Of a stretch of 64,000 bases of DNA, positions 2,820 to 46,500 are shown piece by piece. A model generated the notes under the pieces. That model worked only from the letters and a program-made list of their open reading frames with translations, did no database searches and was not told where the DNA came from. Location: the IMG/VR virus record IMGVR_UViG_3300010354_000069, positions 1 through 64,000 of that record; one strand, given 5' to 3'. The DNA comes from a virus. Made by a program: the position numbers and the translations under genes. The number at the start of each line of letters is the position of its first letter. The first letter of the stretch is position 1.

Positions 2820-3014
2820 ATGCCATTTACTGCTGCACCTTCTAACAGCACCCACGCAAACTTTTCGGATAACTTCAACACCACAACTGTTCAGGTTCAG
2901 TCCGCCGGGTATGAAAAGTTGAACGATACTCAAACGAGTTTCAATACAAAAATCTACTATGGTCCAGGTATTGCCCGTACTCCCAAAGTCATAACTTTCA
3001 AGAATCAATCATAA
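2820..3014 (+). CDS. Small hypothetical protein (64 aa)
   Basis: AAGGAG RBS. TAATG overlap with the next gene. Confidence 0.6.
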   Translation: MPFTAAPSNSTHANFSDNFNTTTVQVQSAGYEKLNDTQTSFNTKIYYGPGIARTPKVITFKNQS

Positions 3015-3871
3015 TGGCTGTAAGTACTTTACTCGTACAGTGGACCGCTTCTACTACCACACGTACTGCTACAAAGCTTACGCAGGTCATTCGAGATTTC
3101 CTTCAAACAAACGGTTGGACAATCGTTGATGATATGTCTTCAACCGCTTGGAACTACGGCGGTCAAAATAGACCAAGTATCGTAGTTACCTACAATAGAA
3201 ATACTGGTTTTACTGGAGATAACCCTTTAATTCTAATCAGTACTTATGTGCAGTCTAGTGTAAATTACTTGTACTTCTACGCTATTGAATCTTGGAATAC
3301 AAGTACAAAAACCTTTACAGGGATGACTTCAAGTCCCTACGCTTTTACAGTTATTAGCTACACTTCAAATATGGACTTGCTAATTTCTTGTGACAGTACG
3401 TTCATTGTAGCTACTTGCAAAGTAGGTGGCGTCCGGCAGTCAAACCAGCTGTTTGGGGTTTGTTGCTACGAACGTTATAGCGGTGACCAAGATTTAGGGT
3501 CATTCTACGGTAGTGTTGTCTTTACTACAAGTGGAATAGGTATACCAAGAATCTGGCATAACACTACTGCCTTTGGAAGTAACTCTACTAGCTCTGCACA
3601 AATGAATATAGGAACTATTGTAGGTAACAACTGGTCAGCACTTAGCACAGTTGACGAAGGCGGAAATGATGTAATCTTCCCGGTCTATGTACACAACTAC
3701 GCATATGGTAGGCACAAGGGGCTTCTATATGGTATGAGAGTTACTACAAACAGTGCTACTGTTACAGATGGTACAATAACAGGAGCTGTAGACGGTAACG
3801 CTTGGTATATCGTGAAGTCCGGTACAGCAAGCGGTTGCATGCCTTATGCAACGCCTACTGTAGTAACTTAG
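3014..3871 (+). CDS. Putative virion structural protein, paralog 3 of 3
   Basis: QVIRDFLQTNGWT, VTYNRNTGFTGDNP, ESWNT, ISCDSTFI and CYERYSGDQD are shared with the two upstream paralogs. Confidence 0.6.
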   Translation: MAVSTLLVQWTASTTTRTATKLTQVIRDFLQTNGWTIVDDMSSTAWNYGGQNRPSIVVTYNRNTGFTGDNPLILISTYVQSSVNYLYFYAIESWNTSTKTFTGMTSSPYAFTVISYTSNMDLLISCDSTFIVATCKVGGVRQSNQLFGVCCYERYSGDQDLGSFYGSVVFTTSGIGIPRIWHNTTAFGSNSTSSAQMNIGTIVGNNWSALSTVDEGGNDVIFPVYVHNYAYGRHKGLLYGMRVTTNSATVTDGTITGAVDGNAWYIVKSGTASGCMPYATPTVVT

Positions 3872-10323: not shown

Positions 10324-11434
10324 TACGCTCCTAAGGACGCTGCTTTACAGCAGAGCCTGCACCATAAAGAACCTGGATAATCCGGCAATCAACCCGGCCA
10401 GTATTGTAGTCAATGTCCAAGGTCACGCCGGCGTCGGCAAGACTGCCATGATTCAGCAGTTAGCGCGAGACCTCAGAATTGGTTACGAAATTCTAAATGT
10501 CGGCGGCGTCACTGACGTCGCCGAAATCTTTGGTATCAGCCACGTGAACCAGCTCACCGGGCGAACCGAAGCTACTCCGCCAGCTTGGTGGCCTCTGGAC
10601 GAGCACAGCGAAGGTATCATCAACATCGATGACCTGACTCGTGCGCTTCCCCACGTCATTCAAGCGCTGCAGCAGTTCATCAACACGAGAAAGTTTCACA
10701 ATCTGGTGCTGCCCAAGGGTTGGACCATTGCGGTCACCACCAACCCGGACGACGGCGACTACAACGTGACGTCGGTGGACAACGCCTACGAGACGCGACT
10801 GGTCACCCTCGTCTACAACAGACCAGAAGAAGTGTTTCTCGAGCAACTCGAGAAGCAGGGCGTAGACGACATGGTCGCCAACTTCTGGCAGGTGCACCGT
10901 GAGCAACTCCGCATGCCCAGGTTGGAGCAAAAAGCACCGAAGGCCAACGACCGTACGCGCATGATCTTCAACCACCTGTACCCGTATTTGGCTAACGACC
11001 AAGATGCGCTGATTGCTACGGGTTCTGCGCTATTTGGCTACGAGTGGACTCAGGTGTTTCTGAGCTTTCAGAAGAACGATGACCAGCCGTTGAACCCCGA
11101 CGAGATTCTGGAAATCTATGTCAATGACAGCAGCCTGAAGCAAACCACCGAAAGGTACTTTGCTCAGGGCCGAAACGATTTGCTCAAGGTAAGTACTGAA
11201 AGATTGGTCCACCGCATGCGACAGGTCGTTGCTCTTACCAGTAACAACTGGAAGAATATCTCTGCATTTCTGACAGATTTGCCACAGGATCTAGGATTTC
11301 ATATGTATATGTCTTTGGTTCAGACAGGACAGCCGTCAGCTGATTTGTTCAGAGCCAAGCTTATGGAATTCCCCGAACTTGCCACAAACTTTGTCAAACT
11401 TGCTGAAAGTATTCCAAAGGTAAGAAAGGAATAG
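10265..11434 (+). CDS. MoxR-type AAA+ ATPase
   Basis: Walker A GHAGVGKT, Walker B IINIDD, sensor VTTNP, D.A..TR arginine finger. Next to a VWA partner. Confidence 0.85.
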   Translation: MSQQSPARVCKQAKELYPTDTLLRTLLYSRACTIKNLDNPAINPASIVVNVQGHAGVGKTAMIQQLARDLRIGYEILNVGGVTDVAEIFGISHVNQLTGRTEATPPAWWPLDEHSEGIINIDDLTRALPHVIQALQQFINTRKFHNLVLPKGWTIAVTTNPDDGDYNVTSVDNAYETRLVTLVYNRPEEVFLEQLEKQGVDDMVANFWQVHREQLRMPRLEQKAPKANDRTRMIFNHLYPYLANDQDALIATGSALFGYEWTQVFLSFQKNDDQPLNPDEILEIYVNDSSLKQTTERYFAQGRNDLLKVSTERLVHRMRQVVALTSNNWKNISAFLTDLPQDLGFHMYMSLVQTGQPSADLFRAKLMEFPELATNFVKLAESIPKVRKE

Positions 11435-11444
11435 GAGACCAGTC

Positions 11445-11666
11445 GTGTCTGAGTGGAACCGTAATCGTTATGAGATGCAGCCTCATAATTTCAACGAAAA
11501 GTTCGGACCAAAGACCGCCGGCCACCCTACAGTAGGGCATCCCTGTGCCAAGTGCCGAGTACCGCTGGAATCCGGTGACTACACTACGCTGAACCCGGTG
11601 GACAACTACTCTGTAGAAGTCCACTGGGACTGCATCAACCCGAAGATGAAAAAGAAGAAGCAATGA
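11445..11666 (+). CDS. Small Zn-finger protein
   Basis: CAKC...HWDC motif. AGGAG RBS. Confidence 0.6.
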   Translation: MSEWNRNRYEMQPHNFNEKFGPKTAGHPTVGHPCAKCRVPLESGDYTTLNPVDNYSVEVHWDCINPKMKKKKQ

Positions 11667-11839
11667 CTCTGTTCGAAGACCTTTGTGAGCAACCAGATCC
11701 AATAGGTGTTTTGGCACGGGCTTGCAGTACCCTTGAAGAGCTTTATGAGCACTTGGACATACTGCTTATCAACGAGCCCAATCATCCACACTACATCGAA
11801 CTGCTTATGCTCAAGACTGACATCGAGCGGACCTTGTAG
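11663..11839 (+). CDS. Small hypothetical protein (58 aa, MTLFEDLCEQ...)
   Basis: Not in the ORF track. ATGA overlap with the upstream stop; ends TAG 11837-39. Confidence 0.6.
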   Translation: MTLFEDLCEQPDPIGVLARACSTLEELYEHLDILLINEPNHPHYIELLMLKTDIERTL

Positions 11840-12103
11840 CGTCCTCGCGCGCACGCGCGCGGTCCAGCTATTGGTGAACTTCCCCCTAACTACTGCGTCC
11901 CCTCTCCCTCCTCTCCCCCAAAGCGGCGTTTCATAGGCAAGTAGCCATGCAGCGGCCAACCTTGGCGCACTTTACGTGCACGGAACAAGGGTAGAGGGGA
12001 CGCAGAGCCGGTGCGGCCGCACCGGGGAGGAGTTGGATTTCCAGCTATTGGAGCCACTTCCACTACTGCGTTCTCTGCGTCCCCACGCCTTAACGCAGCA
12101 GCA
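11840..12103 (-). ncRNA. Putative structured non-coding RNA (~260 nt) / candidate replication-origin transcript
   Basis: Lies downstream of the promoter at 12110-12137. 13-bp perfect inverted repeat (11893-11905/11993-12005), 18-bp palindrome 12008-12025, and stems with G-U pairs only on the minus strand. Confidence 0.5.
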
Positions 12104-12109
12104 TGCATG

Positions 12110-12137
12110 ACAATAGCATGCTCATTGCTCCTGTCAA
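12110..12137 (-). promoter_or_regulatory. Sigma70-type promoter P2
   Basis: Minus strand TTGACA(12137-32)-16 nt-TATTGT(12115-10) with extended TG. Embedded in a TGACA...TGTCA inverted repeat. Confidence 0.65.
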
Positions 12138-12140
12138 GTC

Positions 12141-12258
12141 AAAAAAAAAAGAAGCCGGAAGCTCAACCAATGTGGGGACACAGAGCTGGTAGTTATTAGA
12201 CCACCAGAGCGGGGAGCTTCCGACTTCTCTTGTTGGAACCTTGTGAGGGCGTCCAACA
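12141..12258 (-). ncRNA. Putative small RNA (~118 nt)
   Basis: Bounded by promoter P1 and a 15-bp stem followed by a ten-U tract. Has a 5' hairpin and an internal hairpin; G-U pairs favour the minus strand. No ORF. Confidence 0.65.
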
Positions 12259-12263
12259 ACTAA

Positions 12264-12292
12264 ATCCTACACAGTAGCCTAGAGTCTGTCAA
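12264..12292 (-). promoter_or_regulatory. Sigma70-type promoter P1
   Basis: Minus strand TTGACA(12292-87)-17 nt-TAGGAT(12269-64) with extended TG. Confidence 0.75.
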
Positions 12293-12363
12293 CGCGTCTC
12301 GGTCGGTCATGGTTGCAGGTGGTTGGGAATGTTGCCGCCGTTGCTTGAAAAGGAGTCCAGCTA

Positions 12364-12681
12364 GTGGGTGGTGAAGAGTTGGGTGAGGCGGTTGGCAAAG
12401 TGCTGGACCAACTGGCTTCCGTTCTGGCAGACTATCTGCATGTTGAAAGCAAGCTTCAGGTGCACGCCCTCACGTGGACACCGGAAGCAACGTCAATTTA
12501 CATTGACGATCCTCAGTTGGCCGGACACATCACACGTCGAGTCACTACCGAACTTGGTGACATTCAGGTAGTTGTGGACCACGCAACCCGCGGCCCCGTA
12601 TCAGTGGAACTTATCCAATGCCCAATATCGAATACACGCTCGTCAGCGATAACGACATTGAAGACGTTGTCCAGTACCTGA
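12364..12681 (+). CDS. Hypothetical protein
   Basis: AAGGAG RBS before GTG 12364. Confidence 0.55.
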   Translation: MGGEELGEAVGKVLDQLASVLADYLHVESKLQVHALTWTPEATSIYIDDPQLAGHITRRVTTELGDIQVVVDHATRGPVSVELIQCPISNTRSSAITTLKTLSST

Positions 12682-14642
12682 GCGGGGAATCGCTGCTGGC
12701 GCTGGATACGGAAACGTACAGAACGACCAAACCCTATCCCAGAGCCTACGACCTGAAGACGGAAAACCGCTTGTGGATTTCCGATCCTTTCATCAACAAC
12801 ATTCGGCTGGTACAGATTCGGTCACGTGACAGCGAAAGCTTCATCTTTGACCTGATGGAGCTTTCTGGCGCAAGCACTGAACGGCTTCAGTGGTTGCTGG
12901 GGCAAAAGCACATTACTTGGTTGGGGCACAACCTCAAATTCGATTGGCGCATGATTGCCGTCAACCTGGAAGTCGAACTTGAGAAGGTTTGGGACACCAT
13001 GCTGGCAGCGATCACCATCGGCTACGCAATTGGCGACGGTGCCATGTGGTCAAGAGGTGTTGGCCTCAAAGATGTCTGTCGCGACTTTCTTGACGTCAAA
13101 CTGGACAAGACGGAGCAGAACAGTAACTGGGGCGCCAAGGAACTGACAGCAAATCAGTACCAGTACGCAGCAAACGACTTGCTTTACCTGTTCAAGCTCT
13201 ATGACGTACTGATCAAGGCAATCGAAGAAGAGTATGACATGCTTGGTGGAGTGCAGTTGGAAATGGAGCTGCTTCCGGCAGTAGCAGCAATGGAAATTGC
13301 CGGAATCGATTTTGATCTTGATCTGTACTACCGAGTGCAGAAAGCTGCCAAAGCTTATATTCCCAAGCTGGAAGAAGAGCTTTGCAAGTTTATCGGATGG
13401 CCCATGATTGCAGTACCGCCTCTTGAGCGGATAAAGACTGGGCGTAACTGGAAACCAAACCCAAAAAGCTTTGACGGTGAAGCAAAGAGTCCTCTGGATT
13501 CAAACCCTTTCATGCTCAAAGCGTTTCGGGATAAAGGTGTGGAAGTCGAGAACTTGCAGGGAAAGCACTTGGAAGAGTTGTCGGACAAGTACCCAATCCT
13601 GAAAAAGTTCAGTGACTACAAGGATCTTACCAAGCAGCTTGGGATAGCCTACGATGCTTGGGTACACCCACTTACGGGCCGTATTCATCCCGAATTCAAC
13701 CAGTCAGGCGCCGCCACCGGTCGTTTCAGCTGCAATAACCCCAACTTGCAGCAGGTTCCAAAAACGGAAATCACGGACCCTCAGACGGGTGACAAACTCT
13801 GCTACCGCTACTGCTTCATTGCTCCTGATGGCCAAGAACTGGCTTCAGCCGACTACTCGGGACAAGAGCTACGCGTCATGGCAGTACTGTCCGGCGATCC
13901 CAACCTGATTCACATCCACAAGAACGAACCCGACTACGTCGAGGATCCAACGGGCAAGCTGGATGAATATGGCAAACCGGCCATGGTGAAGAACATGGGT
14001 GCAGATGTCCACGCAATGAGTTGCGAGCTGGTGTATGGTTCAGCAGGTATTACCAGATGGAATGCAAAGACTACGCCCTACCCGGGACTATCGGGCAAGA
14101 CGTACAGAGACGTCATCAAGACCGTTGTCTACGGGCTGGCCTACGGCAAGACTGCACCTGGTCTGTCAAAAGACATGGGTATCAGCATCGATGAAGCGGA
14201 AAACATCATCGAGTCCTTTTTCAGACCCTACCGTGTCCTTCACCAGTGGTTGGAAAAGGTCGGCAAAGCTGCCGACGATACGAGATTAAGCCGATACGGT
14301 ATACCAGAAGCTGGTATTACTCGTTGGCGAATGGTAAACTCGGACAGGCACGAAGACAAAGGTGCTTTGAATCGAGCCGGCAAGAACACCCCCATTCAAG
14401 GATGCAGCGCACTCATGATGAAGAAAGCTTTGTGCAGCCTGAGAACGGTTGTACGAGAAGCTGGTGGAACAGTATGCGCTACGATTCACGACGAAGTTCT
14501 CGTCAGATATCCTATCGAACTACGGGACCAAGTGATGGCAGCAATCGACAAGGGCATGACCGAAGGATCCAACGTATTCCTCCGAAATGTTGTCAACGAT
14601 AAGTACGGTGTCGGCTGCGCCAAACACTGGTCAAAGGATTAA
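12618..14642 (+). CDS. polA: DNA polymerase family A (3'-5' exonuclease + polymerase, no 5'-3' exonuclease)
   Basis: ExoI LDTET, ExoII HNLKFD, ExoIII YAAND, TGRFSC.NPNLQQ, motif A ADYSGQELR, motif B K...YGLAYG, motif C IHDE. Confidence 0.95.
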   Translation: MPNIEYTLVSDNDIEDVVQYLSGESLLALDTETYRTTKPYPRAYDLKTENRLWISDPFINNIRLVQIRSRDSESFIFDLMELSGASTERLQWLLGQKHITWLGHNLKFDWRMIAVNLEVELEKVWDTMLAAITIGYAIGDGAMWSRGVGLKDVCRDFLDVKLDKTEQNSNWGAKELTANQYQYAANDLLYLFKLYDVLIKAIEEEYDMLGGVQLEMELLPAVAAMEIAGIDFDLDLYYRVQKAAKAYIPKLEEELCKFIGWPMIAVPPLERIKTGRNWKPNPKSFDGEAKSPLDSNPFMLKAFRDKGVEVENLQGKHLEELSDKYPILKKFSDYKDLTKQLGIAYDAWVHPLTGRIHPEFNQSGAATGRFSCNNPNLQQVPKTEITDPQTGDKLCYRYCFIAPDGQELASADYSGQELRVMAVLSGDPNLIHIHKNEPDYVEDPTGKLDEYGKPAMVKNMGADVHAMSCELVYGSAGITRWNAKTTPYPGLSGKTYRDVIKTVVYGLAYGKTAPGLSKDMGISIDEAENIIESFFRPYRVLHQWLEKVGKAADDTRLSRYGIPEAGITRWRMVNSDRHEDKGALNRAGKNTPIQGCSALMMKKALCSLRTVVREAGGTVCATIHDEVLVRYPIELRDQVMAAIDKGMTEGSNVFLRNVVNDKYGVGCAKHWSKD

Positions 14643-29855: not shown

Positions 29856-30046
29856 TTGTGACAGAAAACGAGTACTGGCAACCTGCCAGACGCGGTGAGG
29901 TAGCGTGTACTCACGGTGTAGGACACCCACTACCAAGGCAACGCGATCCAGTACACGGCTGTGACGGTTGTTGCAGCCGTGAAGATTTTCCGGGACGAAG
30001 AGATGAGCAACCCACCAAAAACAAAGAAACTGATAGGTCTGGATGA
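29852..30046 (+). CDS. Small Cys/His-rich hypothetical protein
   Basis: CTHGVGHP...HGCDGCC; TTGA overlap. Confidence 0.5.
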   Translation: MIVTENEYWQPARRGEVACTHGVGHPLPRQRDPVHGCDGCCSREDFPGRRDEQPTKNKETDRSG

Positions 30047-30761
30047 AGTAGGTTGGGGTGCCGTAGCGGGTCCGATGGTAATCTGTGCTACCTACGTTCC
30101 TACTGAGCATTGGGACCTTCTTCGGTCTTGGGGCTTTCGAGACACAAAAAGACTTGGCAGCAAGCTGAAGTTTACAAACCACAAGCGTCTGCGCGTGTCC
30201 GATCACATAGGCGAAGCCTTGGCACACCGCCTGGACGACACGGAAGAAAGCCTGGCAAGCTGGTGCATTGTGCCGGTTGACCCAATTACCATTGATTTGC
30301 TAACACCAGCCGTTGCCAAGAACCGCGCGTACAGACGAGCAGTAATGATGATGCTGGCTGCAAATGGTTGGGGCATGGATGAAGTTGAAGTCTTGGTTGA
30401 CGGCAAGTTTCCTGCAAAGTTACTGCCTAAAGAAATAGAGCAGGACACTATCCCTACGGCCGATGCGCTAGTACTGCCCGCAGCGGTAGCCAGCGTGCTA
30501 GCCAAAGCTTATCGAGACCCGTACATGCGCAAGCTCGGCACACTGTACCCCGCGTTTGGTTTTGACAAGAACAAAGGCTACCCCACCAAGGAACACATGG
30601 ATATCTTGCTCAGGCATGGTCCAATCAAGGGAATTCACCGAACCCACTACCTCAAGAAATGGCTGATGAACTACTATGCTCGTACAGCCCCTAGCAAGAA
30701 ACCCCCACTACCCCGTTGGCTGCACGAGTCCGGATTTCTGTCCGAAGGCTATGGCGCCTGA
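30003..30761 (+). CDS. rnhB: Ribonuclease HII
   Basis: GLDEVGWGAVAGPM, RDTK, VDG, ASVLAKAYRD, NKGYPT and HR. Confidence 0.92.
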   Translation: MSNPPKTKKLIGLDEVGWGAVAGPMVICATYVPTEHWDLLRSWGFRDTKRLGSKLKFTNHKRLRVSDHIGEALAHRLDDTEESLASWCIVPVDPITIDLLTPAVAKNRAYRRAVMMMLAANGWGMDEVEVLVDGKFPAKLLPKEIEQDTIPTADALVLPAAVASVLAKAYRDPYMRKLGTLYPAFGFDKNKGYPTKEHMDILLRHGPIKGIHRTHYLKKWLMNYYARTAPSKKPPLPRWLHESGFLSEGYGA

Positions 30762-33215: not shown

Positions 33216-35738
33216 ATGCAGACCTTACCGGGTCACATTGCTGAACTTGCAGCCACTTTGCCGGCTCTGTCCGCAAACGCTACCACAGTGCTTCAGAAGC
33301 GCTACCTTGACCGTGACGAGCGGGGCAACCCGCACGAGACCGTGGACGGCTTGTTCTGGCGCGTAGCCAGCACTCTTGCTGCCGTCGATGCTAAGTACGG
33401 CAACGAAGACGAGCAGCACGTCAGTGCTGAAGAGTTCTTCAGTATGATGCGGGGCAGCGAGTTTCTCCCGAACAGCCCGACCTTGGCAAATGCGGGTACT
33501 CGAACCGGACAGCTCTCTGCTTGCTTCGTTCTGCCAGTTGCTGACGCACTTAGCAACGGTGTAAACGGTATCTACGATACCCTGCGTGAAGCGCAGTTGA
33601 TCTTTCAGACCGGCGGCGGCGTTGGCTACAGCTTCAGCCGCTTGCGCGGTAAGGGCAAGATTGTAGAAACCACACGCGGGTTCAGCTCCGGACCTGTTAG
33701 CTTCATGGACGTCTACAACACGTCTTGCGGCTCGATTGCGCAAGGCGGAATTCGTCGCGGTGCGCAGATGGGCATCCTTCGCGTCGATCATCCGGATATC
33801 ATGGAGTTCATTCGGTACAAGGAAGACTTGACCAAGCTGACCAACTTCAACGTGTCAGTTGCTGTAACCGAAGAGTTTCTCAAAGCGCTGAAGAACAGTG
33901 AGCAGTATCAACTGGTTGATCCCAACAGCGGACCTACCGGTGAGTTTCTTGAAGCCCGTGAAGTCTGGAATGAAATTATTCAGCGTGCTTGGTCTACTGG
34001 TGAGCCTGGCCTGTTCTTCATTGATCGGGCTAATGCTGAGCACCCTACTCCAAAGCTCGGCGCCTATGAAGCTACAAACCCATGCGGTGAACAGCCTCTG
34101 GCACCCTACGAGTCTTGCAACTTGGGATCTCTCACTCTGGATACCTTCGTAGAAAACGGCAAGCTTGACTGGAAGCGGCTCGAAAGAGCCACCCACCGGG
34201 CTATTCACCTGATGGACAACGTGGTTGATGCCAACGCCTACGTTCCCGCTCGTGGTGAAAACCCCGGTGTTCCCAAGATTCGGGAAATCACGCTTCAGAC
34301 GCGTAAGCTCGGTCTTGGTGTCATGGGTTTGGCTCGTATGCTGTTCAAGCTGGGCCTTGGCTACGACACGGAAGAAGGCCGTGACGTAGCTGCGCGTGTC
34401 TACGCGTTTATCGATGCTCACAGCAAGATTGCTTCCTGCAACCTGGCTGCCAAGCGCGGTGCTTTCCCGTACTTCCAGGCAAACAAAGCAGAGGCAGAAA
34501 CGTTCTTCAAGCGTTACTGGACCAAGCGAGCAGAAACCGCGAGATACGAGGGCTGGGAAGACATTGCCAGTCTTTACGAGAAGGCTGTGCAGCTGATGCA
34601 AACGCACGGTGTTCGCAACAGCACGACAACCACCGTAGCGCCTACCGGCACGCTATCTATTCTGCACGATACCTCTGGCGGCTGTGAGCCGGAGTTTGCG
34701 CTCGTAATCAGTCGTTGGCAAGCCGATACCGAAATGTTCGAGGCAAACCCCGTGTTTGCTGCAGAGCTGAAAAGCGCGGGCCTCACCTCAGAAGAAGTGG
34801 AAGCTGTCTACAAGGCACTCGGTGGAAGTCGTGGATCCCTTCAGGAGGCTCTTGCCAAGGGCAAGCTAGACAGTCTCATGGAACCCGCACTAAGCGTTCT
34901 CAAGCGGCTCAGTAATACGTACGCCGTTGCCGGTGACATTGCTCCACGGGATCACGTGCTTATGCAGGCAGCCCTGCAGAAGCACTGTGACAGCGCAATC
35001 AGCAAGACCATCAACTTCCCCAACGAAGCTACCGTTGAGGAAGTCGAGGCCGCTTACTGGCTGGCAATCGAAGCCGGCTGCAAGGGCATCACGGTGTATC
35101 GTGACGGCTCGCGTATGTTCCAGCCACTGACTGCAGGGGACAAGAAAACCGAGAAGAAAGATAAGCAGGCTACAAAAGAGGTAGAAACTCTAGTTAGCCA
35201 GCCCAGACCTCGTCCGGACACCCTTATCGGTTTGACAAAGATGCAGCACACCGGCGACGGCAAACTGTACGTCACCATGAACTATGACGAGGAAGGCTTG
35301 CGTGAAGTATTTCCTGTGGTAGGACGTTCCGGTGGCACGATCTTCTCGCTGACCGAGGCCATTGGCAGGTTGATTAGCTTGGCTCTGCAGTACCACGTAC
35401 CCGTTAGGGAAATCGTACACAAGCTGATCGGCATCCGCTCGGCTAATGTCTTTGGTATTGGACCCAAGCAGGTACTTAGCATTCCTGATGCGATTGGCAA
35501 GGTCATGAACCAGAGTCAGAACGGGAGTCTCAAATCCGAGATTACCAGTATCGAGCAGTACATTCCGGAAGCAGTGACAGCGCTGACGGAGACTTCGCAA
35601 GAAGTATCCTCTAGGTTGCAGGCTTTGGAGCACGGCGAAAGTCCTGAGTGCCCTAACTGCGGGGCACCCATGAAGTTCGGCGAAGGTTGCCGCGGCGGTA
35701 GCTGTACTAATCTTGAGTGCGGCTACGCAAAGTGCTGA
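33216..35738 (+). CDS. nrdJ: Class II (B12-dependent) ribonucleotide reductase
   Basis: PNSPTL.NAG, LSACFV, NPCGEQ, TVAPTGT, SKTIN, TVYRDGSR, plus a C-terminal TSCPD-like domain and CPNC Zn ribbon. Start ATG 33216 after AAGGA. Confidence 0.93.
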   Translation: MQTLPGHIAELAATLPALSANATTVLQKRYLDRDERGNPHETVDGLFWRVASTLAAVDAKYGNEDEQHVSAEEFFSMMRGSEFLPNSPTLANAGTRTGQLSACFVLPVADALSNGVNGIYDTLREAQLIFQTGGGVGYSFSRLRGKGKIVETTRGFSSGPVSFMDVYNTSCGSIAQGGIRRGAQMGILRVDHPDIMEFIRYKEDLTKLTNFNVSVAVTEEFLKALKNSEQYQLVDPNSGPTGEFLEAREVWNEIIQRAWSTGEPGLFFIDRANAEHPTPKLGAYEATNPCGEQPLAPYESCNLGSLTLDTFVENGKLDWKRLERATHRAIHLMDNVVDANAYVPARGENPGVPKIREITLQTRKLGLGVMGLARMLFKLGLGYDTEEGRDVAARVYAFIDAHSKIASCNLAAKRGAFPYFQANKAEAETFFKRYWTKRAETARYEGWEDIASLYEKAVQLMQTHGVRNSTTTTVAPTGTLSILHDTSGGCEPEFALVISRWQADTEMFEANPVFAAELKSAGLTSEEVEAVYKALGGSRGSLQEALAKGKLDSLMEPALSVLKRLSNTYAVAGDIAPRDHVLMQAALQKHCDSAISKTINFPNEATVEEVEAAYWLAIEAGCKGITVYRDGSRMFQPLTAGDKKTEKKDKQATKEVETLVSQPRPRPDTLIGLTKMQHTGDGKLYVTMNYDEEGLREVFPVVGRSGGTIFSLTEAIGRLISLALQYHVPVREIVHKLIGIRSANVFGIGPKQVLSIPDAIGKVMNQSQNGSLKSEITSIEQYIPEAVTALTETSQEVSSRLQALEHGESPECPNCGAPMKFGEGCRGGSCTNLECGYAKC

Positions 35739-35748
35739 GGTAGAAACG

Positions 35749-35782
35749 GGGGAGTCCGGCAAATGCCGGACTCCCCTTTTTT
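35749..35782 (+). terminator. Rho-independent terminator
   Basis: GGGGAGTCCGGC-AAAT-GCCGGACTCCCC-TTTTTT. Confidence 0.9.
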
Positions 35783-35853
35783 ATTGCGTCACGCCGTAGT
35801 ACGTACAGCCAACTTGGGGTACACTCAAAGCACCGAAAGGATGAGTGTAGCCC

Positions 35854-36306
35854 GTGGAACCCGTTTACATCTTTACCGTCGAACAATTCAAGGAAGAGCT
35901 TGAGGAAAAACTCAAGAACGTAACACACGTAGCGGTCATGCCCGCGCGTAGTGAAATCTATGGTGTGGGTGAAGGGCTGTCTTTTGACGGTTTTACCATG
36001 CCTATCGTCGGTCTTACACTTAACACTGTTGCAGGGCTGAATGGCATGATTTCCCACATGCTCAGGCAAAGTGACAATCAGTTTGAACCGTACTGCGCAG
36101 ATGAAAAGTTCATTGAAGCAGCACAGAAGCGTCTTGACGCAGAGCGGGCAGCGCTAGAAAATCGTCAAGCAGCTGAGCAAGCTAGAAATGCTGAGCTTGC
36201 TTCAATTGCCAGCAAGCTAGCTTCCCCATACATTGATGCGGGACACCAGCTTGAGAGCGCGCTCCCCCTGATTCTGGAGGCCATCGAACAACATGAAAAT
36301 CGCTGA
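35854..36306 (+). CDS. Hypothetical protein
   Basis: 150-aa ORF; N-terminus loosely similar to that of the next gene. Confidence 0.6.
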   Translation: MEPVYIFTVEQFKEELEEKLKNVTHVAVMPARSEIYGVGEGLSFDGFTMPIVGLTLNTVAGLNGMISHMLRQSDNQFEPYCADEKFIEAAQKRLDAERAALENRQAAEQARNAELASIASKLASPYIDAGHQLESALPLILEAIEQHENR

Positions 36307-40064: not shown

Positions 40065-40556
40065 ATGCAGTTTTACGTCAGCGCTTTAGGACCTATAGAC
40101 ACAGGCCGCCCGCTTCACGCCGACGCCGGCAAAACCTTCAACCACGTAGGCATTCCTATCTGGTTTACTAGGGGTAGTTTGCACCGTGCTGTACACGTTC
40201 TAAATGGACCCTACCACGAACCTACTGGACTTTTCGTGGTGCAACCTAACGAAGTGCTGGTGTACTTTGAGGTAAAGCAGCCCCCAGCAGGTTCTTTGCA
40301 AGAGCAGACCATGGGACTGCGCCCGGTTACCTACGCAATTCTTAGTGTCGACCGCAACTTCGTGCATAGCAACAGTTTGCTGTATCAATCAGTAGATCCT
40401 GATGCAGACTTTGAAAAAGACGACGATATCGCCGTCTGGTTTGGAATGACCTTTCCGGCAACTATAGTAGGTAGATTCAGAAAGCCAACGGATACTTTTC
40501 AGCCTCCTAAAGAAACTCGTGGCCACATGTTGAAGGACTCCAACCTCTACAACTAG
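40065..40556 (+). CDS. Hypothetical protein
   Basis: AAGGA RBS. Last plus-strand gene, convergent with the giant ORF. Confidence 0.55.
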   Translation: MQFYVSALGPIDTGRPLHADAGKTFNHVGIPIWFTRGSLHRAVHVLNGPYHEPTGLFVVQPNEVLVYFEVKQPPAGSLQEQTMGLRPVTYAILSVDRNFVHSNSLLYQSVDPDADFEKDDDIAVWFGMTFPATIVGRFRKPTDTFQPPKETRGHMLKDSNLYN

Positions 40557-43500
40557 TTGGCTCGCTTTCGAGCAGCACTAGGAATATCTCTACTACCGCT
40601 GCGACCCTGTCTGTGATAGTCACGGTCCAGCGTGTCATCCTTGCCCTTCTTGCCAGCATGCTCTTGATGGATGACCACCTTCTTGCCCTGTGGGTCAACC
40701 TCTACCTTAGAAGTACGGCGCTGAGAGTGGTCTTTAGTGCTACCCGTCGGCACATCCTTTGCCCCGCTCTTGACACCACCGTGATTAGCCTTGGTATCGA
40801 CAACAACAGTTGCATTCTTTGACTTGGCGGGGGCTTCTTTACCATAGAACACGTTTTGAATGAACTCATCAACGTTTTCAATAACGTCATCGAGCACGTT
40901 ACGTTCATACTTGTCGGATACCACCGCTTCGACTTCGATTGAACCGCTTGAAGAAACGGTACCAGGTAGCGCTTGTTTGCTTGTGCTTGAAACACGTGCA
41001 AGCTCTTTAGTGCTACGAACGCTTAGTTCAGCAGCGGATTTTCCAACACGATACTTGGCGTCAATATGAGCATCAACAGATTTTACAAGGTGCTCGTTAA
41101 TTTTTCCGTAAGCCCAAATATTTGCAAGAACAATACCAATACCTGCAAAGGTTCCTGCGATAGCTCCAGGAAGAGCACCAACACCCCCAGCTAGTGTACC
41201 GGCGGCAGCGCCTGTCAAAGCCGTCTTTACAACGAAACCAGCAGCGGCACTAGCCAAGCCAAGAATGCCTATAGTGCTAAGACCGGCCACACCGTGCCCC
41301 AAAGCACGCTCTCTAGCAACTCTGTCAGTACCCGCCTCCCTGTATTCAACAAAGGTCTTGGATGACTCTACGACCACCATCAAAGGCAACGCAGCTTTGC
41401 TAGCTACTGCGGCAAGTTTCGGTGCCCACGTTGTAGCACCAAATCGCTTTGTAACAAGAGGAACCATGCGTCCGTAGCCTTCAAGTGCTGCTTGTACAGC
41501 AAACAATCCAGTGCTTGCCTTAAAGAAGACTTCCTGCTCAAAAGGCATTTCGTACCCTTGTTTATGCAGCTTTGCCTTTTGGTCTTCAAAATCCATCCAA
41601 CTTTTTACAGACATGGCAAGCATGAATAGAGGATTGCCAAGCTGTTGGCTGAACTCATAACTCTTCATGATCGATGTGTTGGCTAGCCGTTGTTGGTAGA
41701 TATCTCTGCGGATTCGAGCCTCTGCCTGTTCTTGGCGCGCCATAGGACGCTCTCTGGAAGTCTTGTCCAACCTTGAACGAATCTCTTCCTTGCGCTCCAC
41801 TGTACGTTGAATTCGCTCTTCAGCCTCCTGCAACCGCTCAAGAGGTTTGCCGGCAGTACCCAAGCGTGCCCAAATATCTTGCTTCAATTGTTTTTGACGG
41901 TTTATTTCTTCCTCACGCTCAATCAGGGTTTGCAAAGGACGCTCACCCCGTGTTGCCTCCGTACGGCTACGAACTTCTTCGCGTCTAGCTTCTGCTACCG
42001 ACTCGACTGCTCTGCGCTGCTTACGGGCGGCAATGAGCTCGCGCTGCCTATTTGCCAGAGTTTCTTGGTCAAGGCTATTCAAGCTGCGAGGCGTGGGGTT
42101 CTTGCGGAAGTCCCTGACAGCCCTACCCAGAACTAAGCGGCTTTCTTCATCCGCGGGTACGAAAGTACGCTTGGTGTAGCTAAAAGCTTGTGGAGTCTTT
42201 ACTGGCTCGTCCGTCACGCTACGCTGAGCGCTCACAACGGGATTGATGCTTGAAGCAGCAATGTCTTTTGATAGACGTGCTACTACTGCAACAAGCGATC
42301 TACCAGCTTTCAAGTATCTGTGTACGGCTTTTTCAACCAACTCGTCTGGATTTACAACGATTAGCTGGTCTACGTTACGCTCAACAGCACGCCAGCCTCT
42401 ACCCAGTAACATAGAATAGCCGGCATAACCAAGACTGGCAATTGTGCGTGCAAACAATCTGTCAGTAAAGAGGTAAATGTCCCTAGCACCTGTAGATGCA
42501 GCCCTGTAAGCAGCTTCTCTAGCTACGATGTATGTCCTACCGTCACGTTCAATAGTGGTATTGCCAAGGTGCTTAAGAGCGTCACCGTTATCAAACATGC
42601 TAGGCTTGTTATACTTGTCGACAAGCAATTCAGCCGCTATGCCCGCAAATAGCTCTCTAATACCTGTGGACATGAGCTCATGAATAGTAAAAGAAGTAAT
42701 ACCTGGTTTTTCTGATCTACGTCGTACTTCCTCAAGAGTACGCTCTGCGTTAGAGCGCAGTTCTAGGTAGGTCTGCTCTGCAAGTTTTCCGTTAGGGTCT
42801 TGAACACCCATTTCCCTGTACATGGACTTGATGATTTCTCGCCACTCCTGCTCATAAACTTCAGGAGCTGCCCTGAAATCCATGATTCTTGCGCCTGGCT
42901 TAAAACCGAAAGTCTGAACGTAGTGTGCGCTGCTGTAGTGCCCCCAACCGCTAGGTTTAATTCCTCGAACACCAGAGTAATCTGTGGCATCGTTTCTGGA
43001 AGGTGTCACGTAGAACCCGGCCCCTTCGGCCCAAGTGCCAGATACGTCCAACTCTGGAATTCCGTAAGGACGATAGTCCTGACCGTGGTAGTAAGCCCTG
43101 CTTGTAAGCCTGTCGGATATAGCTTGCTTTTCCGCAGTAAAATCAACTACACCAGAGCGGGTTGTGTGTGCATCGCGCGCAAGTGTTGAAGTTTCTGGCG
43201 CCGCTGTACGAAGCTCCATGTCAAGTAGTTCGTGCGGTAGCAGATTTGAAGCACTTTCAGTCTTTGGCAAAGACCTCCACTCGTATTTGGCCCTCTGTTC
43301 AGCCGCTCGAGTATCTGCCCGCATTTTCAGCATCAGCCTTAGCATGCGAGCTTCTTTTTGAGCAAACCTGATGAGACTGCTGATAGCTCCAGGTTGACTG
43401 CTTGCTCTTTGCAACCGGTCTCTGTACGTCTGGTAAGCAAGACGGCCAAGAACCGGTGCGGTTGCAAGTAGACTAGTGGCCAGAGTAGCAAAGTGCTCGG

Positions 43501-46500
43501 GCGTAATCAGAGTGCCAAAACCACTGGAAGCTTCTGCGGGCATTGTAGCGGCTGCAACCAAACCCAAGCCAGTAAAAGCAATGGACATTAGTCGTCCGGA
43601 GCGCCCGCCAAGAATGCCTTTACGCTCTGCCGCTCGTTTAGCCAAACGGCTTACACGGTCTGCGGTACTAGCAGCAACGTGTGAGTAAGGCTCTATATTC
43701 CTTGAATACTCGGCGGGTATTACTTCTGGTAGGCTGGTCTCAGAAATATTGAGAACCTTCGCTATCTTAGTTTTATAGATGTTTATAAGCTCTACAGCTT
43801 TGTCCATCTCAACAGAATCTTGTTTAGGAGCAAATTCTTGAACTAACCGCTTGGTATAAAAGTCAAGTCGTAAATCCATATCTCTGGTAATGTTACCAGC
43901 TGCATGCTTGCGTAGAATAGCATTTTTAATAAGGTCAACGCGCCTGTCTGTAAAGTATATCTGTTCGTCAGTAAGTCCAGCTGCATCCCTGAGGAAGTTG
44001 TACATAGTACGCTGTTCTGGATAAGCAGAGAAAACACTAGTAGTAGAGTTTACGTTAATACGCAACCTGCGGATAAGCTCTGGCATTACATTTATTGCTC
44101 TAGTTTCTACAGCAGCTTCTTCAAGGGCTAGTTCAGGCGCCGTAGCGTAATGCCCTTTTATATCGTAATCAAAGCCGAATCTAGCTAGAGCGCGCCTACG
44201 CGGGCTGTACTCGTGATGCACTTCGTGAGAAAGGATATGAAGAGTCGTTAACAAGCGTTCCAAAGACTTTTCTCTATATTCAAATGAAGCTACGCCAAGT
44301 TTATTTCTACTCTGACGTGCGATATCTAGTAGATACGGAGTATACTTATTTCTAACATTGATGTAAGCCATCATACCGCGCGGAGTGTGCATACCATCCC
44401 AGCTAAAAGGCATATTGGTCACTCCAATATCATTCAGCAGAATAACAGGAAGGGGTAGGATTCCTCTTCTTTGTTCTCTAGGTAAAGTACTTCTAACAGC
44501 CTTTGCAGTTTCGTACAAAGCAAATTGCATAGCAGTAAGTTGTTTTGCAGTATCAACAAAGTGTCTTAGGCTTGCAACCGATCTTGCACTTATAGTTTTC
44601 AAAAAATCTATTGTTTGTCTAGGTTTCAACACAAGGCTCGCAGTAAGCGCAGTAGCGGTAGCCCCAAAAACACCAGCTGCAGCAAATTTCAGGTAAGGTA
44701 CTAAAGTGTTAATCAGACTAGGGTAATGCGTAGTAATTTTACTAAGGTCGGGCTCCACCACAGTTTCAATCCTGAAGTGGGTTGCCGCTTCTGCAGGCAT
44801 TCCAGCGGCTAGTGCAAGGCCTACACCAAGTAACCCTAGTGCCAAAGGCTTGGCACCACGCTTGAGGCTTTGACGAGCCTTCTCAAGAAGCTTTGGTTGT
44901 AGAGCTTTGAGTGTGCTGCGAACGTAAGTGAAACCTCTTGCTACACTGACAGAAGATTTGTCTATGGTAGTAGTAAACAAATGGTGCGGTTTACGAGCAG
45001 AAGCAATAATGTCAGAAGAAGCTCTGTACCTGAGTAGCTGTACTGTGTATTCACTTAAATTTGCTAAGTTCAAAGCCCCCAACCGCTTTATACGTTTACC
45101 TGGAACAACAGCATAAACAGTTGTTTCTCTCGCTTCTTTGGAGTCCATTAATACAAGCTGACCATTTTCGTTGAAAATGGTATTACGTACTCCCGCGTAT
45201 CCTTGGCTTACAATACTGTCTCTAAGAGCTGTATGAACTGCAACCTCAGAGTTGAAGTTTGGTGGTAGACCTTCAGCAGCAGTAAAACGAGATGTCATAA
45301 ACTCTACTGCGCTCTTATAAAAGTATTCTACATTGTGTTTGTTGTCGGGAGTATCAAGAGCGTTAAGCAGACGCAGGAGCTCCGCATTGAACTTACTGCT
45401 AGTTTTTTCACTATCATTTACGTGAAGCAGCATAGTCTCAAAAGTGTGCTGCAACATTGTGCGTACTTCAGTCTTGTACACTTCAGCAGGCTGAGCAAAG
45501 TCTATAAACTGTGCAGTAGGGTTTAGCCTTACTTTTTGAACGATACCAAACTGCTTTTTGGCCTTTGTTACAAGGGCTCGTACAGTCTTGCCTGCTGAGT
45601 TTACAGTAAGACCCGCGTAGTCAAGGGCTTGGCCAACCGTTTCAGCCATGTAGTAACCACGGCCGCCCCACCAAGAGCCGTGTAAAGAGGCTTCAGGAAT
45701 ACCAGAAGGTGCATGAGTTTGACCGTGGTAGTACGTACGGTTGGTAATCTGCCTTGAGATATCTTTCTTCAAAGTGGTGAAATCCAAAGCGGTGCGCGTA
45801 GGCTCGGCCTCGGAAGCGGGAACAACACTGGACAGAGGTTGATTCTTATTGTTACCCCCAAAAAGCTTCTTGACTCCTTCCCAGCCAAGAATTCCGGCTG
45901 CAGAGAAACCAAGCTGACTCATCAGCAAAGCGTTGTCTGCGAGCGATGTGACGTGATGCCCAAACGGTAGCGTAGCTGCTTCAGCGGGCATTCCAGCGGC
46001 TAGAGCCAGACCTGTTCCTACCAGCAGGCCGAAGATACCGGAAGTGCGCTGCCCCCGCTCCCGCCTAGCTTTCTCTAGCTCAGCATCAATAACCGTCACC
46101 ATAGAACTATCGTTTAAAATTTCGAAAGAAGGTAAGTCACGTCGTGCAATAGAGCTCAAAGACCTGTGTAGCCTATCAAGAGCTTTTAAACTTTGTTTAT
46201 AGCTGCCTACAGGACGTCTAATGCTAAATCTGCTGCTATAGGAAGAAGGTACAAACACGTTTACAGCGTAGTTATTGATAACCTTTCTTATTCTTGTAGC
46301 TTGGCTCCGGTTAAGGCGAAACTTCTCTGCAATTTTTTCACTTAGTAGTTTTACACGATCCTCTTCGACATACAAAGTATCGCTTGTAATATCTGTAAGT
46401 GAAAGCAAGGCCCTTGTAAACATTCTTTGAAACTTATAGGTAGCGACTAAAGGAGCGGTACTTACAGTATGTCCAGTTAGCCTTCCTACAAATTCCCTAA

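Follow-up and report, generated by a model that had tools for sequence, protein, structure and literature searches.

A predicted two-gene RNA cassette with a conserved, switch-like non-coding RNA upstream of the DNA polymerase gene of an environmental phage

The stretch at positions 11,840–12,137 of the viral record IMGVR_UViG_3300010354_000069 lies within a 525-nucleotide (nt) gap (11840–12363) upstream of a DNA polymerase gene; the window analysed here comprises the first 64 kb (64,000 nt) of this 72,243-nt contig, whose completeness is estimated by CheckV at 35%. Our analysis leads us to interpret the stretch as the gene of a previously unclassified, switch-like phage non-coding RNA (ncRNA), termed RNA 2, which is partnered with a terminated RNA of 117 nt encoded immediately upstream, termed RNA 1. 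The presence of a real structured ncRNA on the minus strand is judged very probable, while its action as a riboregulator through invariant linkers is a proposition that we consider evenly balanced. What is new is the two-gene phage RNA cassette with a four-element switch, phage small and antisense RNAs being already known. The initial annotation had proposed a second structured transcript at this site, and this prediction agrees with our findings of a promoter-like sequence directly behind the terminator of the first RNA and of a conserved minus-strand fold. The predicted elements of the cassette, all on the minus strand, are the following.

12141–12292, minus strand: gene of RNA 1, consisting of promoter P1 and an RNA of about 117 nt (12257–12141)
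12292–12264, minus strand: promoter P1, TTGACA-17-TAGGAT
12234–12214 / 12164–12144, minus strand: terminator stem of RNA 1, 15 bp, followed by ten U
12186–12207, minus strand: inner hairpin of RNA 1, with an invariant 11-nt apical loop region (plus strand AGTTATTAGAC) and a covarying stem
12172–12185, minus strand: element Q, a look-alike of element M in an open loop of RNA 1
12137–12110, minus strand: promoter P2, with −35 TTGACA (12137–12132), a 16-nt spacer and an extended −10 TGnTATTGT (hexamer 12115–12110)
11844–12103, minus strand: RNA 2, a predicted ncRNA of about 260 nt, its start placed 6–8 nt after the −10
12062–12102, minus strand: SL1, the 5' stem-loop, with an 11-bp outer and a 4-bp inner stem and element R in its loop
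12073–12086, minus strand: element R, RNA GUGGGGACGCAGAG, with two possible pairing partners, M in cis and Q on RNA 1
12026–12066, minus strand: block B, a nearly invariant linker with CCAAUAGCUGGA and an anti-Shine-Dalgarno-like CUCCUCC
12008–12025, minus strand: GC-rich palindromic hairpin, which closes module 2
11990–12007, minus strand: element M, RNA CUCUGCGUCCCCUCUACC, the switch arm, which can pair with R (12 bp) or L (16 nt)
11909–11989, minus strand: variable interior of the M:L hairpin, holding part of a G-rich tract
11893–11908, minus strand: element L, RNA GGGAGAGGGGACGCAG, paired with M in the last of the folds
11844–11902, minus strand: block A, a nearly invariant paralogue of block B, with CCAAUAGCUGGA and the CGCGCG hairpin at 11846–11861

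The RNA strand is the minus strand, to judge from the promoters, the conservation of their hexamers, the G.U pairs and the folding energies. P2 had been reported to start 3 nt past the ten-U run (12141–12150) that ends the upstream RNA, and a promoter-like sequence was indeed found there on the minus strand. The strict pattern TTGAC[AT]-N16-18-TANNNT has just two matches on both strands of the 72,243 nt, and both of these lie in the gap on the minus strand. A rough estimate puts the chance expectation at about 3 such matches per 144 kb; hence the number of promoters is ordinary, whereas the co-location of both in a single 525-nt gap and in the same direction is not. The gap contains no promoter-like site on the plus strand, the only such sites found on that strand being at 11270 and 12475. 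In the relative L081, a 5,336-nt metagenome contig (95% identity in the family A DNA polymerase, PolA, and 79% at the DNA level), the −35 of P2 is identical and the −10 reads TGnTATGTT, with a spacer that has diverged without insertions or deletions, and both hexamers of P1 are unchanged around a diverged spacer that has 18 nt in place of 17. In two closer relatives, X2 and X3, the listed differences spare all four hexamers, those in the area of P2 falling at 12126 (spacer) and 12106 (downstream), and a loose end of yet another relative, X10, reads TGTCAAG.

The pairing patterns point in the same direction. Some conserved pairs are of the G.U type when read on the minus strand, where the plus strand would have a C.A mismatch; two of these are in SL1 and one is in the terminator stem of RNA 1, and such pairs are also seen in the helix between M and R, with two in L081 and one in X2 and X3 (from 11999 G>A, which gives a U.G pair on the minus strand only); a single case of the opposite sense is provided by 12182 A>G in X2. 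The duplexes L:M, M:R and R:Q, evaluated in two genomes, have the lower energy on the minus strand in 6 of 6 comparisons, that of L:M being −39.9 kcal/mol on the minus and −36.3 kcal/mol on the plus strand. Likewise, the RNAalifold consensus reaches −85.2 kcal/mol with 73 pairs on the minus strand against −64.7 kcal/mol with 63 pairs on the plus strand. Across the contig, the minus-strand folding segment at 11840 ranks first of 360 for GC-adjusted minimum free energy (MFE; −3.5 standard deviations, sd) and the next minus-strand segment, containing RNA 1, ranks second (−3.0 sd), with neither of them in the top six of the plus strand. RNA 2 itself has a minus-strand MFE of −132.9 kcal/mol. The shuffle-based MFE z-scores, on the other hand, differ little between the strands and speak against the asymmetry, being −5.23 on the minus and −4.14 on the plus strand.

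The folds of this stretch had been described in the initial annotation as mutually exclusive, and the compensatory changes seen in relatives show that this predicted folding behaviour is a conserved property of RNA 2. In the RNAalifold structure computed with L081, seven of the 73 pairs are changed on both sides and nine on one side, with none broken; when the 3' partners were slid by 1–3 columns as a control, 0–1 double changes remained and 37–47% of the cells were paired. The clearest individual cases all belong to SL1: its double changes in L081 are 12064/12100 (U-A to C-G), 12068/12096 (G-C to A-U) and 12077/12088 (G-C to C-G), and 12099 C>T in X2 and X10 converts a G.U pair of this stem-loop to A-U. 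The palindromic hairpin is also retained in L081, where its inner pairs change from C-G to A-T and from G-C to C-G, with one mismatch.

Position 12077, in element R, covaries with two or three alternative partners. The window has G here, and L081, X2, X3 and X10 have C. Its partner in the inner stem of SL1, 12088, changes to match from the C of the window to G in L081 and X2, and is T in X3 and X10, in which the inner pair is lost. The partner in M, 12003, goes from C in the window to G in X2 as well as X3, thereby compensating 12077 in M:R. For the partner in Q, 12181, the C of the window is replaced in L081 by A, and this yields a U.G pair with 12077 on the minus strand. More generally, M and Q of L081 both read CUCCU against CUCUG in the window, in agreement with the change in R, and M:R of L081 consists of 13 contiguous minus-strand pairs, two of them G.U.

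Folding of 5'-anchored truncations, which is a thermodynamic prediction and not a description of kinetics, gave an identical order of structures in the window and in L081. SL1 and the GC hairpin are predicted first, at 45 and about 100 nt. M:R then forms and SL1 is opened, at lengths of 114–160 nt in the window and 118–200 nt in L081. The inclusion of L, at 200 nt and above in the window and at 215 nt and above in L081, brings SL1 back, now together with the long M:L hairpin.

The sequence repeats from which this arrangement is built were recovered in full, with all of the repeats, the palindrome and the hairpin of the initial annotation present at its coordinates. The repeat CTGCGTCCCC occurs at 11893 and 12075 and its complement at 11996–12005, and these three are the only exact copies in the 64 kb. 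We additionally found a fourth copy, on the complementary strand and with one mismatch, at 12174–12183, so that the elements follow each other in the order L (11893), M (11996, complement), R (12075) and Q (12174, complement); at one mismatch or fewer, 4 of 7 matches lie in the region (3.27 expected). The middle copy was said to be able to pair with either flank, and it does so with the left copy over 16 nt (94%, 13 contiguous) or with the right copy at 12 of 12 positions. The repeat TCCAGCTATTGG is found at 11863 and 12040, ACTACTGCGT at 11889 and 12062, the 18-bp palindrome at 12008–12025 and the CGCGCG-CACG-CGCGCG hairpin at 11846–11861. The G-rich tract is likewise present on the minus strand, as GGGGGAGAGGAGGGAGAGGGG (complement of 11899–11920) and GGGGG (complement of 11881–11885).

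In all, the 298-nt stretch holds 5 direct and 12 inverted pairs of 10-mers, counts that none of 1,000 dinucleotide shuffles reached (means 0.059 and 0.549, respectively). The direct repeats are spaced 173–182 nt apart; the region goes back to an ancient event in which a unit of about 180 nt was duplicated in tandem. The direct repeats D1–D3 tie block A to block B, and RNA 2 can thus be described as two paralogous modules, each with a stem-loop, a linker containing CCAAUAGCUGGA and a GC-rich hairpin; the 3' arm of the stem-loop ends in ACGCAG and is followed by UAGU..GGAAGU..CCAAUAGCUGGA and then by the GC-rich hairpin.

Both copies of TCCAGCTATTGG known from the 64 kb are those given above, and the window contains no other exact copy, near copies being located inside genes; with no further exact copies, a role as a general phage promoter motif was rejected. 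A one-mismatch copy at 12356, at the start codon of the open reading frame (ORF) 12364, was considered as a target of a small RNA (sRNA) and set aside, being unconserved in L081, X2 and X3. A degenerate copy of the block motif (TCCAGGTATTGC) at 2963–2974, intergenic and upstream of ORF 3014–3871, is probably due to chance.

Conservation along RNA 2 is strikingly patchy. Identity to L081 is 100% at 11837–11902 and 12030–12059, against 79% overall, and no difference is listed for X2 or X3 in block B, in a table that leaves 10 differences undisplayed. The interior at 11909–11989 falls to 47–70% identity in 30-nt segments, although the long hairpin still folds in L081, and in X10 117 nt of the interior are swapped for 115 unrelated letters between flanks that align at about 90%. 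For X2, several short alternative contigs (37–112 nt) with different letters cover 11894–12033, suggesting strain-level microdiversity exactly in the variable interior. The 3' end of RNA 2 is set only by the limit of conservation near 11844, and X3 carries a 7-nt insertion behind 11840. This end could come from Rho-dependent termination or from processing at the GC hairpin. RNA 2 has about 10 GGA motifs in 260 nt, around twice the expectation by our own count, but they lie outside loops, and a function as a CsrA sponge was therefore rejected.

RNA 1 has five pairs changed on both sides relative to L081, and its loop CUAA is U-turn-like. The longest helix between RNA 1 and RNA 2 in both genomes is Q:R, at 14 bp. 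The energy of the whole-length duplex of the two RNAs is uninformative, since it is no better than that of shuffled sequences (140 and 167 of 300 shuffles reach it). RNA 1 has an intrinsic terminator and U tail, features of Hfq-type sRNAs, and RNA 2 is without them.

The gap as a whole is non-coding. Differences from L081 in the flanking plus-strand ORFs distribute over the three codon positions as 3/2/25, 17/7/32 and 7/4/24, with a third-position bias, in contrast to the ORFs within the gap (16/17/23 and 12/8/17), which have no such bias, and none of the small ORFs of at least 10 amino acids in the gap is kept in frame and length between the window and L081. A coding role of the gap was rejected on these two grounds.

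The reading that we favour, that of a riboregulator, draws on the conserved promoters, the 5' protective stem-loop, the invariant unpaired linkers and the built-in refolding. Under it, host RNA polymerase would read RNA 2 from the minus strand, against the flanking phage genes, as the second gene of a two-gene RNA cassette. SL1 would form first during synthesis; the emerging C-rich M may then capture the G-rich R in the SL1 loop and thereby open SL1, and once L has been made M would shift to L, with the long hairpin forming and SL1 re-forming. Invariant, largely unpaired linkers are usually held constant by a binding partner, and the mostly unpaired invariant linkers of RNA 2 may accordingly bind a partner in trans, either RNA or protein, or the complementary plus-strand leader of the replication operon. 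RNA 1 could modulate the switch, with Q in its open loop pairing with R.

Several points weigh against this interpretation. The full alignment comprises two sequences only, the window and L081, and the consensus structure is derived from the same two sequences on which pairs were counted; X2, X3 and X10 are known from a difference table alone, with 10 differences undisplayed. The MFE z-score of L081 is equal on both strands (−2.81). The sigma-70 pattern used for the promoters is an assumption, and it may not be that of the host. Blocks of 100% identity in mosaic phage genomes can stem from recent recombination. The terminal GC hairpin is followed by no U-tract, and no notable minus-strand terminator is present within 3.4 kb downstream. 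The Q:R helix is only mildly unusual, 14 bp being reached by 20 and 30 of 500 shuffles, and by the displayed table it has one mismatch in X3 and two in X2. A search for a trans target in the 72-kb contig gave as its best match outside the locus a 13-mer, at about chance level, and there is no RNA-type run among the 24 listed runs that hold the stretch.

Among the alternatives, the one that survives best holds that RNA 1 and RNA 2 act only through complementarity to plus-strand transcripts or through head-on transcription, so as to throttle or insulate the operon of the 105-residue ORF (ORF105), PolA and the sliding clamp, as plasmid countertranscripts do with rep genes. We regard it as unlikely. 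It would fit with the fact that both RNAs run against the flanking operons from a position just ahead of the replication module, and given that the gap is without a sigma-70-like plus-strand promoter, plus-strand transcription may have to cross it; furthermore, the size, stem-loops, U-turn-like CUAA loop and terminator of RNA 1 are of the classical countertranscript type. However, cis-antisense action needs no invariant blocks, as both strands change together, and yet two blocks are 100% identical to L081; moreover, the selection seen on G.U pairs bears on how the minus-strand RNA itself folds. CopA of plasmid R1 and RNA I of pT181 are produced from strong constitutive promoters facing the replication gene and have stem-loops with recognition loops, and the outcome is decided by alternative pairings among four elements; their target is a defined leader of the rep mRNA. 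The cassette resembles them in its gene-facing promoters, stem-loop RNAs and four-element alternative pairings, and differs in that selection is visible on the minus-strand fold and that neither an attenuator terminator nor a plus-strand leader could be shown.

The initial annotation had also raised the possibility of an RNA-primed origin, in which RNA 2 would be the R-loop or primer RNA: its G-rich 3' half would hybridize persistently to the C-rich template, RNase H would process it and the phage PolA would extend it, and the M:R / M:L switch, perhaps with RNA 1, would gate hybrid formation. We consider this quite improbable. The PolA gene about 0.5 kb away (481 nt) and the RNase HII gene (29961–30761) to which that annotation appealed are both present but circumstantial, and a promoter-like site of host type lies beside the replication module. 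The G-rich tract and conserved G runs do sit in L and block A. However, the tract falls in the part that is most variable between relatives and is only partly conserved; L081 has a shorter polypurine tract, and X10 has other sequence in the place of this region. The AT-rich unwinding element typical of T4 oriF and oriG is absent, the 266 nt past P2 having a GC content of 0.62 against about 0.5 for the contig, and the phage encodes its own primase and helicases. Cumulative GC skew, which had been suggested as a check, was not supportive: it has only a small local dip at 10–12 kb, goes along with gene orientation and gives no origin signal in this partial genome.

The comparison with plasmid ColE1 bears directly on the priming idea. 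Stepwise refolding of ColE1 RNA II during synthesis decides the outcome and controls hybrid formation, according to PMC5043065, and the predicted sequential refolding of RNA 2 is conserved. The resemblance extends to an ncRNA made, as predicted here, by host polymerase beside replication functions, to a G-rich segment, to a second small terminated RNA able to pair with the 5' stem-loop, and to the genes for RNase H and PolA, which in this case are present in the phage. On the other hand, RNA 2 is about 260 nt long against about 550 nt for RNA II, and a promoter on the opposite strand that could drive a fully complementary RNA I is missing: no plus-strand promoter-like site exists in 11840–12137, and RNA 1, whose gene lies upstream in the same orientation, is only partly complementary, through the 14-bp Q:R helix, rather than being a full antisense over about 110 nt. 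A more specific version, with two same-strand RNAs of which RNA 2 would be the R-loop primer for the adjacent PolA with L gated by the switch, and RNA 1 a trans-acting mimic of M kissing the SL1 loop, is a long shot. Caution is also suggested by the OOP RNA of lambda, which was once proposed as a primer and later proved to be an antisense regulator, as stated in part of PMC12197685.

It is very unlikely that the conserved features act at the level of DNA, with the blocks as sites for phage proteins (iteron-like, or plus-strand promoters for a phage polymerase), the palindromes as sites or cruciforms and the RNA folds as incidental. Such a role could be argued from the occurrence of the blocks as direct repeats 177 nt apart that are more conserved than coding sequence, and from the palindrome, which is self-complementary through its centre (nearly so in L081), a symmetry that an RNA hairpin does not need. 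Nevertheless, the motif occurs nowhere else in the 72 kb and is thus not a general promoter, just two copies at a spacing of 177 nt are unlike iterons, and G.U-specific conservation, compensated stems and conserved minus-strand promoters and terminator would be left unexplained. A functionless remnant, that is a decaying tandem duplication or mobile-element scar with promoter-like sites arising by chance, accords with the clear ancient duplication of about 180 nt and the lack of homologues beyond close relatives, but it is far-fetched given that the blocks are invariant between two genomes with an overall difference of 21%, that RNA 1 and RNA 2 together have 12 pairs with changes on both sides and no broken pair, and that the promoter hexamers were retained as their spacers diverged.

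Further comparisons are available among RNAs of phages and plasmids. Lambda OOP, sar, aQ, PreS and VpdS are short transcripts from host-type promoters that act by base pairing (as described in part of PMC12197685). The cassette is similar in being oriented against its neighbours near replication or regulatory genes, and differs in that there is no sequence or Rfam similarity, in that RNA 2 is much longer and has two modules, and in that RNA 2 is without a U-tract terminator and its conserved part overlaps no coding sequence. The CI RNA of P4 and the C4 RNA of P1 are processed from the transcript of their target and run in the same direction as the genes they control. They share with the cassette mutually complementary short sequences on one strand upstream of replication or antirepressor genes, and a small RNA that pairs with repeated target sites; in contrast, the RNAs described here run in the opposite direction from their own promoters. 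The hok mRNA also goes through sequential, mutually exclusive long-range pairings during transcription, but unlike that system, and type I toxin-antitoxin loci in general, the gap holds no conserved toxin ORF on either strand in the comparison of the window with L081.

The genes surrounding the cassette, together with the RNase HII gene encoded further along, are as follows.

11663–11839, plus strand: 58-amino-acid ORF, the left neighbour of the gap
12364–12681, plus strand: ORF105, 105 amino acids, the right neighbour of the gap, overlapping the start of PolA
12618–14642: PolA, family A DNA polymerase (Pfam DNA_pol_A, 4.4e-55)
29961–30761: RNase HII (PF01351, 3.4e-25)

PolA is followed on its 3' side by a sliding clamp, a UDG-family protein, an SNF2 helicase and a clamp loader, with helicases, a primase and a ribonucleotide reductase farther downstream, and upstream of the gap are a VWA/metallopeptidase protein and a MoxR-type ATPase. 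No tRNA or tmRNA gene was detected in the window with ARAGORN. Two further segments next to the cassette are also well preserved. L081 has an almost identical copy of the non-coding block 12309–12345, in which TGGTTG / GTTGC motifs recur. The block stands between P1 and the ribosome-binding site of ORF 12364, where it may be a regulator site for P1 or the replication operon; by hand inspection its part 12309–12336 was rejected as a sigma-54 promoter, the spacing being one off, and it is not a sigma-70 promoter either. Within the first codons of ORF 12364–12681, about 40 nt (12383–12420) are 100% identical to L081, third positions included, which hints at an additional constraint on the mRNA.

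With respect to phyletic distribution, the cassette appears to be confined to close relatives, which were found in freshwater metagenome assemblies. Parts of the stretch occur in 18 studies; the four runs examined, out of 24 listed, come from four studies, those left aside being X1, which may be the source, and 19 with shares of at most 0.29. Rfam 15 gave no match in the 64 kb at gathering thresholds, and at E of 10 or less the interval 11700–12450 was matched by four eukaryotic microRNA and small nucleolar RNA models, at 16–20 bits against thresholds of 35–96 bits. No match was obtained by blastn against 50,697 phage records, and two exact 23-mers from the blocks are absent from 185,579 prokaryote genomes (GTDB). 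In IMG/VR a single PolA protein query returned no match, a query with a PolA alignment recovered one true relative (L002/G001, with 53% amino acid identity in PolA), and a motif scan gave 10 loci, all of which were rejected as unrelated by context. The genome G001 (L002, L171–L181) is complete, with 205,180 nt, direct terminal repeats and 63% GC; it has the same replication gene order, but its MoxR ATPase and PolA are separated by about 14 kb of other genes. The RNA cassette was not detected in G001 either with the motif (no matches) or with nhmmer (E of at least 0.85). No description of RNA 2 was found in the literature, the searches being aimed at mechanisms, so that prior publication is not excluded.

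Two other regions of the window deserve mention. The strongest plus-strand folding segment of the contig, 35640–35905 (GC-adjusted, −4.0 sd), includes a canonical intrinsic terminator behind the ribonucleotide reductase gene, and also a 115-nt gap that could hold another RNA. On the minus strand, 40553–58153 forms one open frame of 5,866 amino acids, of which the middle third matches PHROG transglycosylase/endolysin and metallo-endopeptidase domains and the first 2,000 residues are without a match.

On the whole, few ncRNAs of phages are known outside the model phages, and almost none from uncultivated environmental phages. The cassette described here would add an RNA family that is definable by sequence and is situated at the entrance of a replication module, and the evidence for a maintained alternative pairing is unusually clear, with one position covarying with two or three partners. 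If RNA 2 primes synthesis for PolA with RNA 1 as a mimic of M, ColE1-like logic would have been reinvented with different wiring in a large phage of lytic type. If it binds a host factor, it would represent a new RNA of host takeover. If, finally, it regulates the replication genes or acts in priming, this phage, whose relatives have genomes of about 200 kb, would couple host transcription to its own DNA synthesis.

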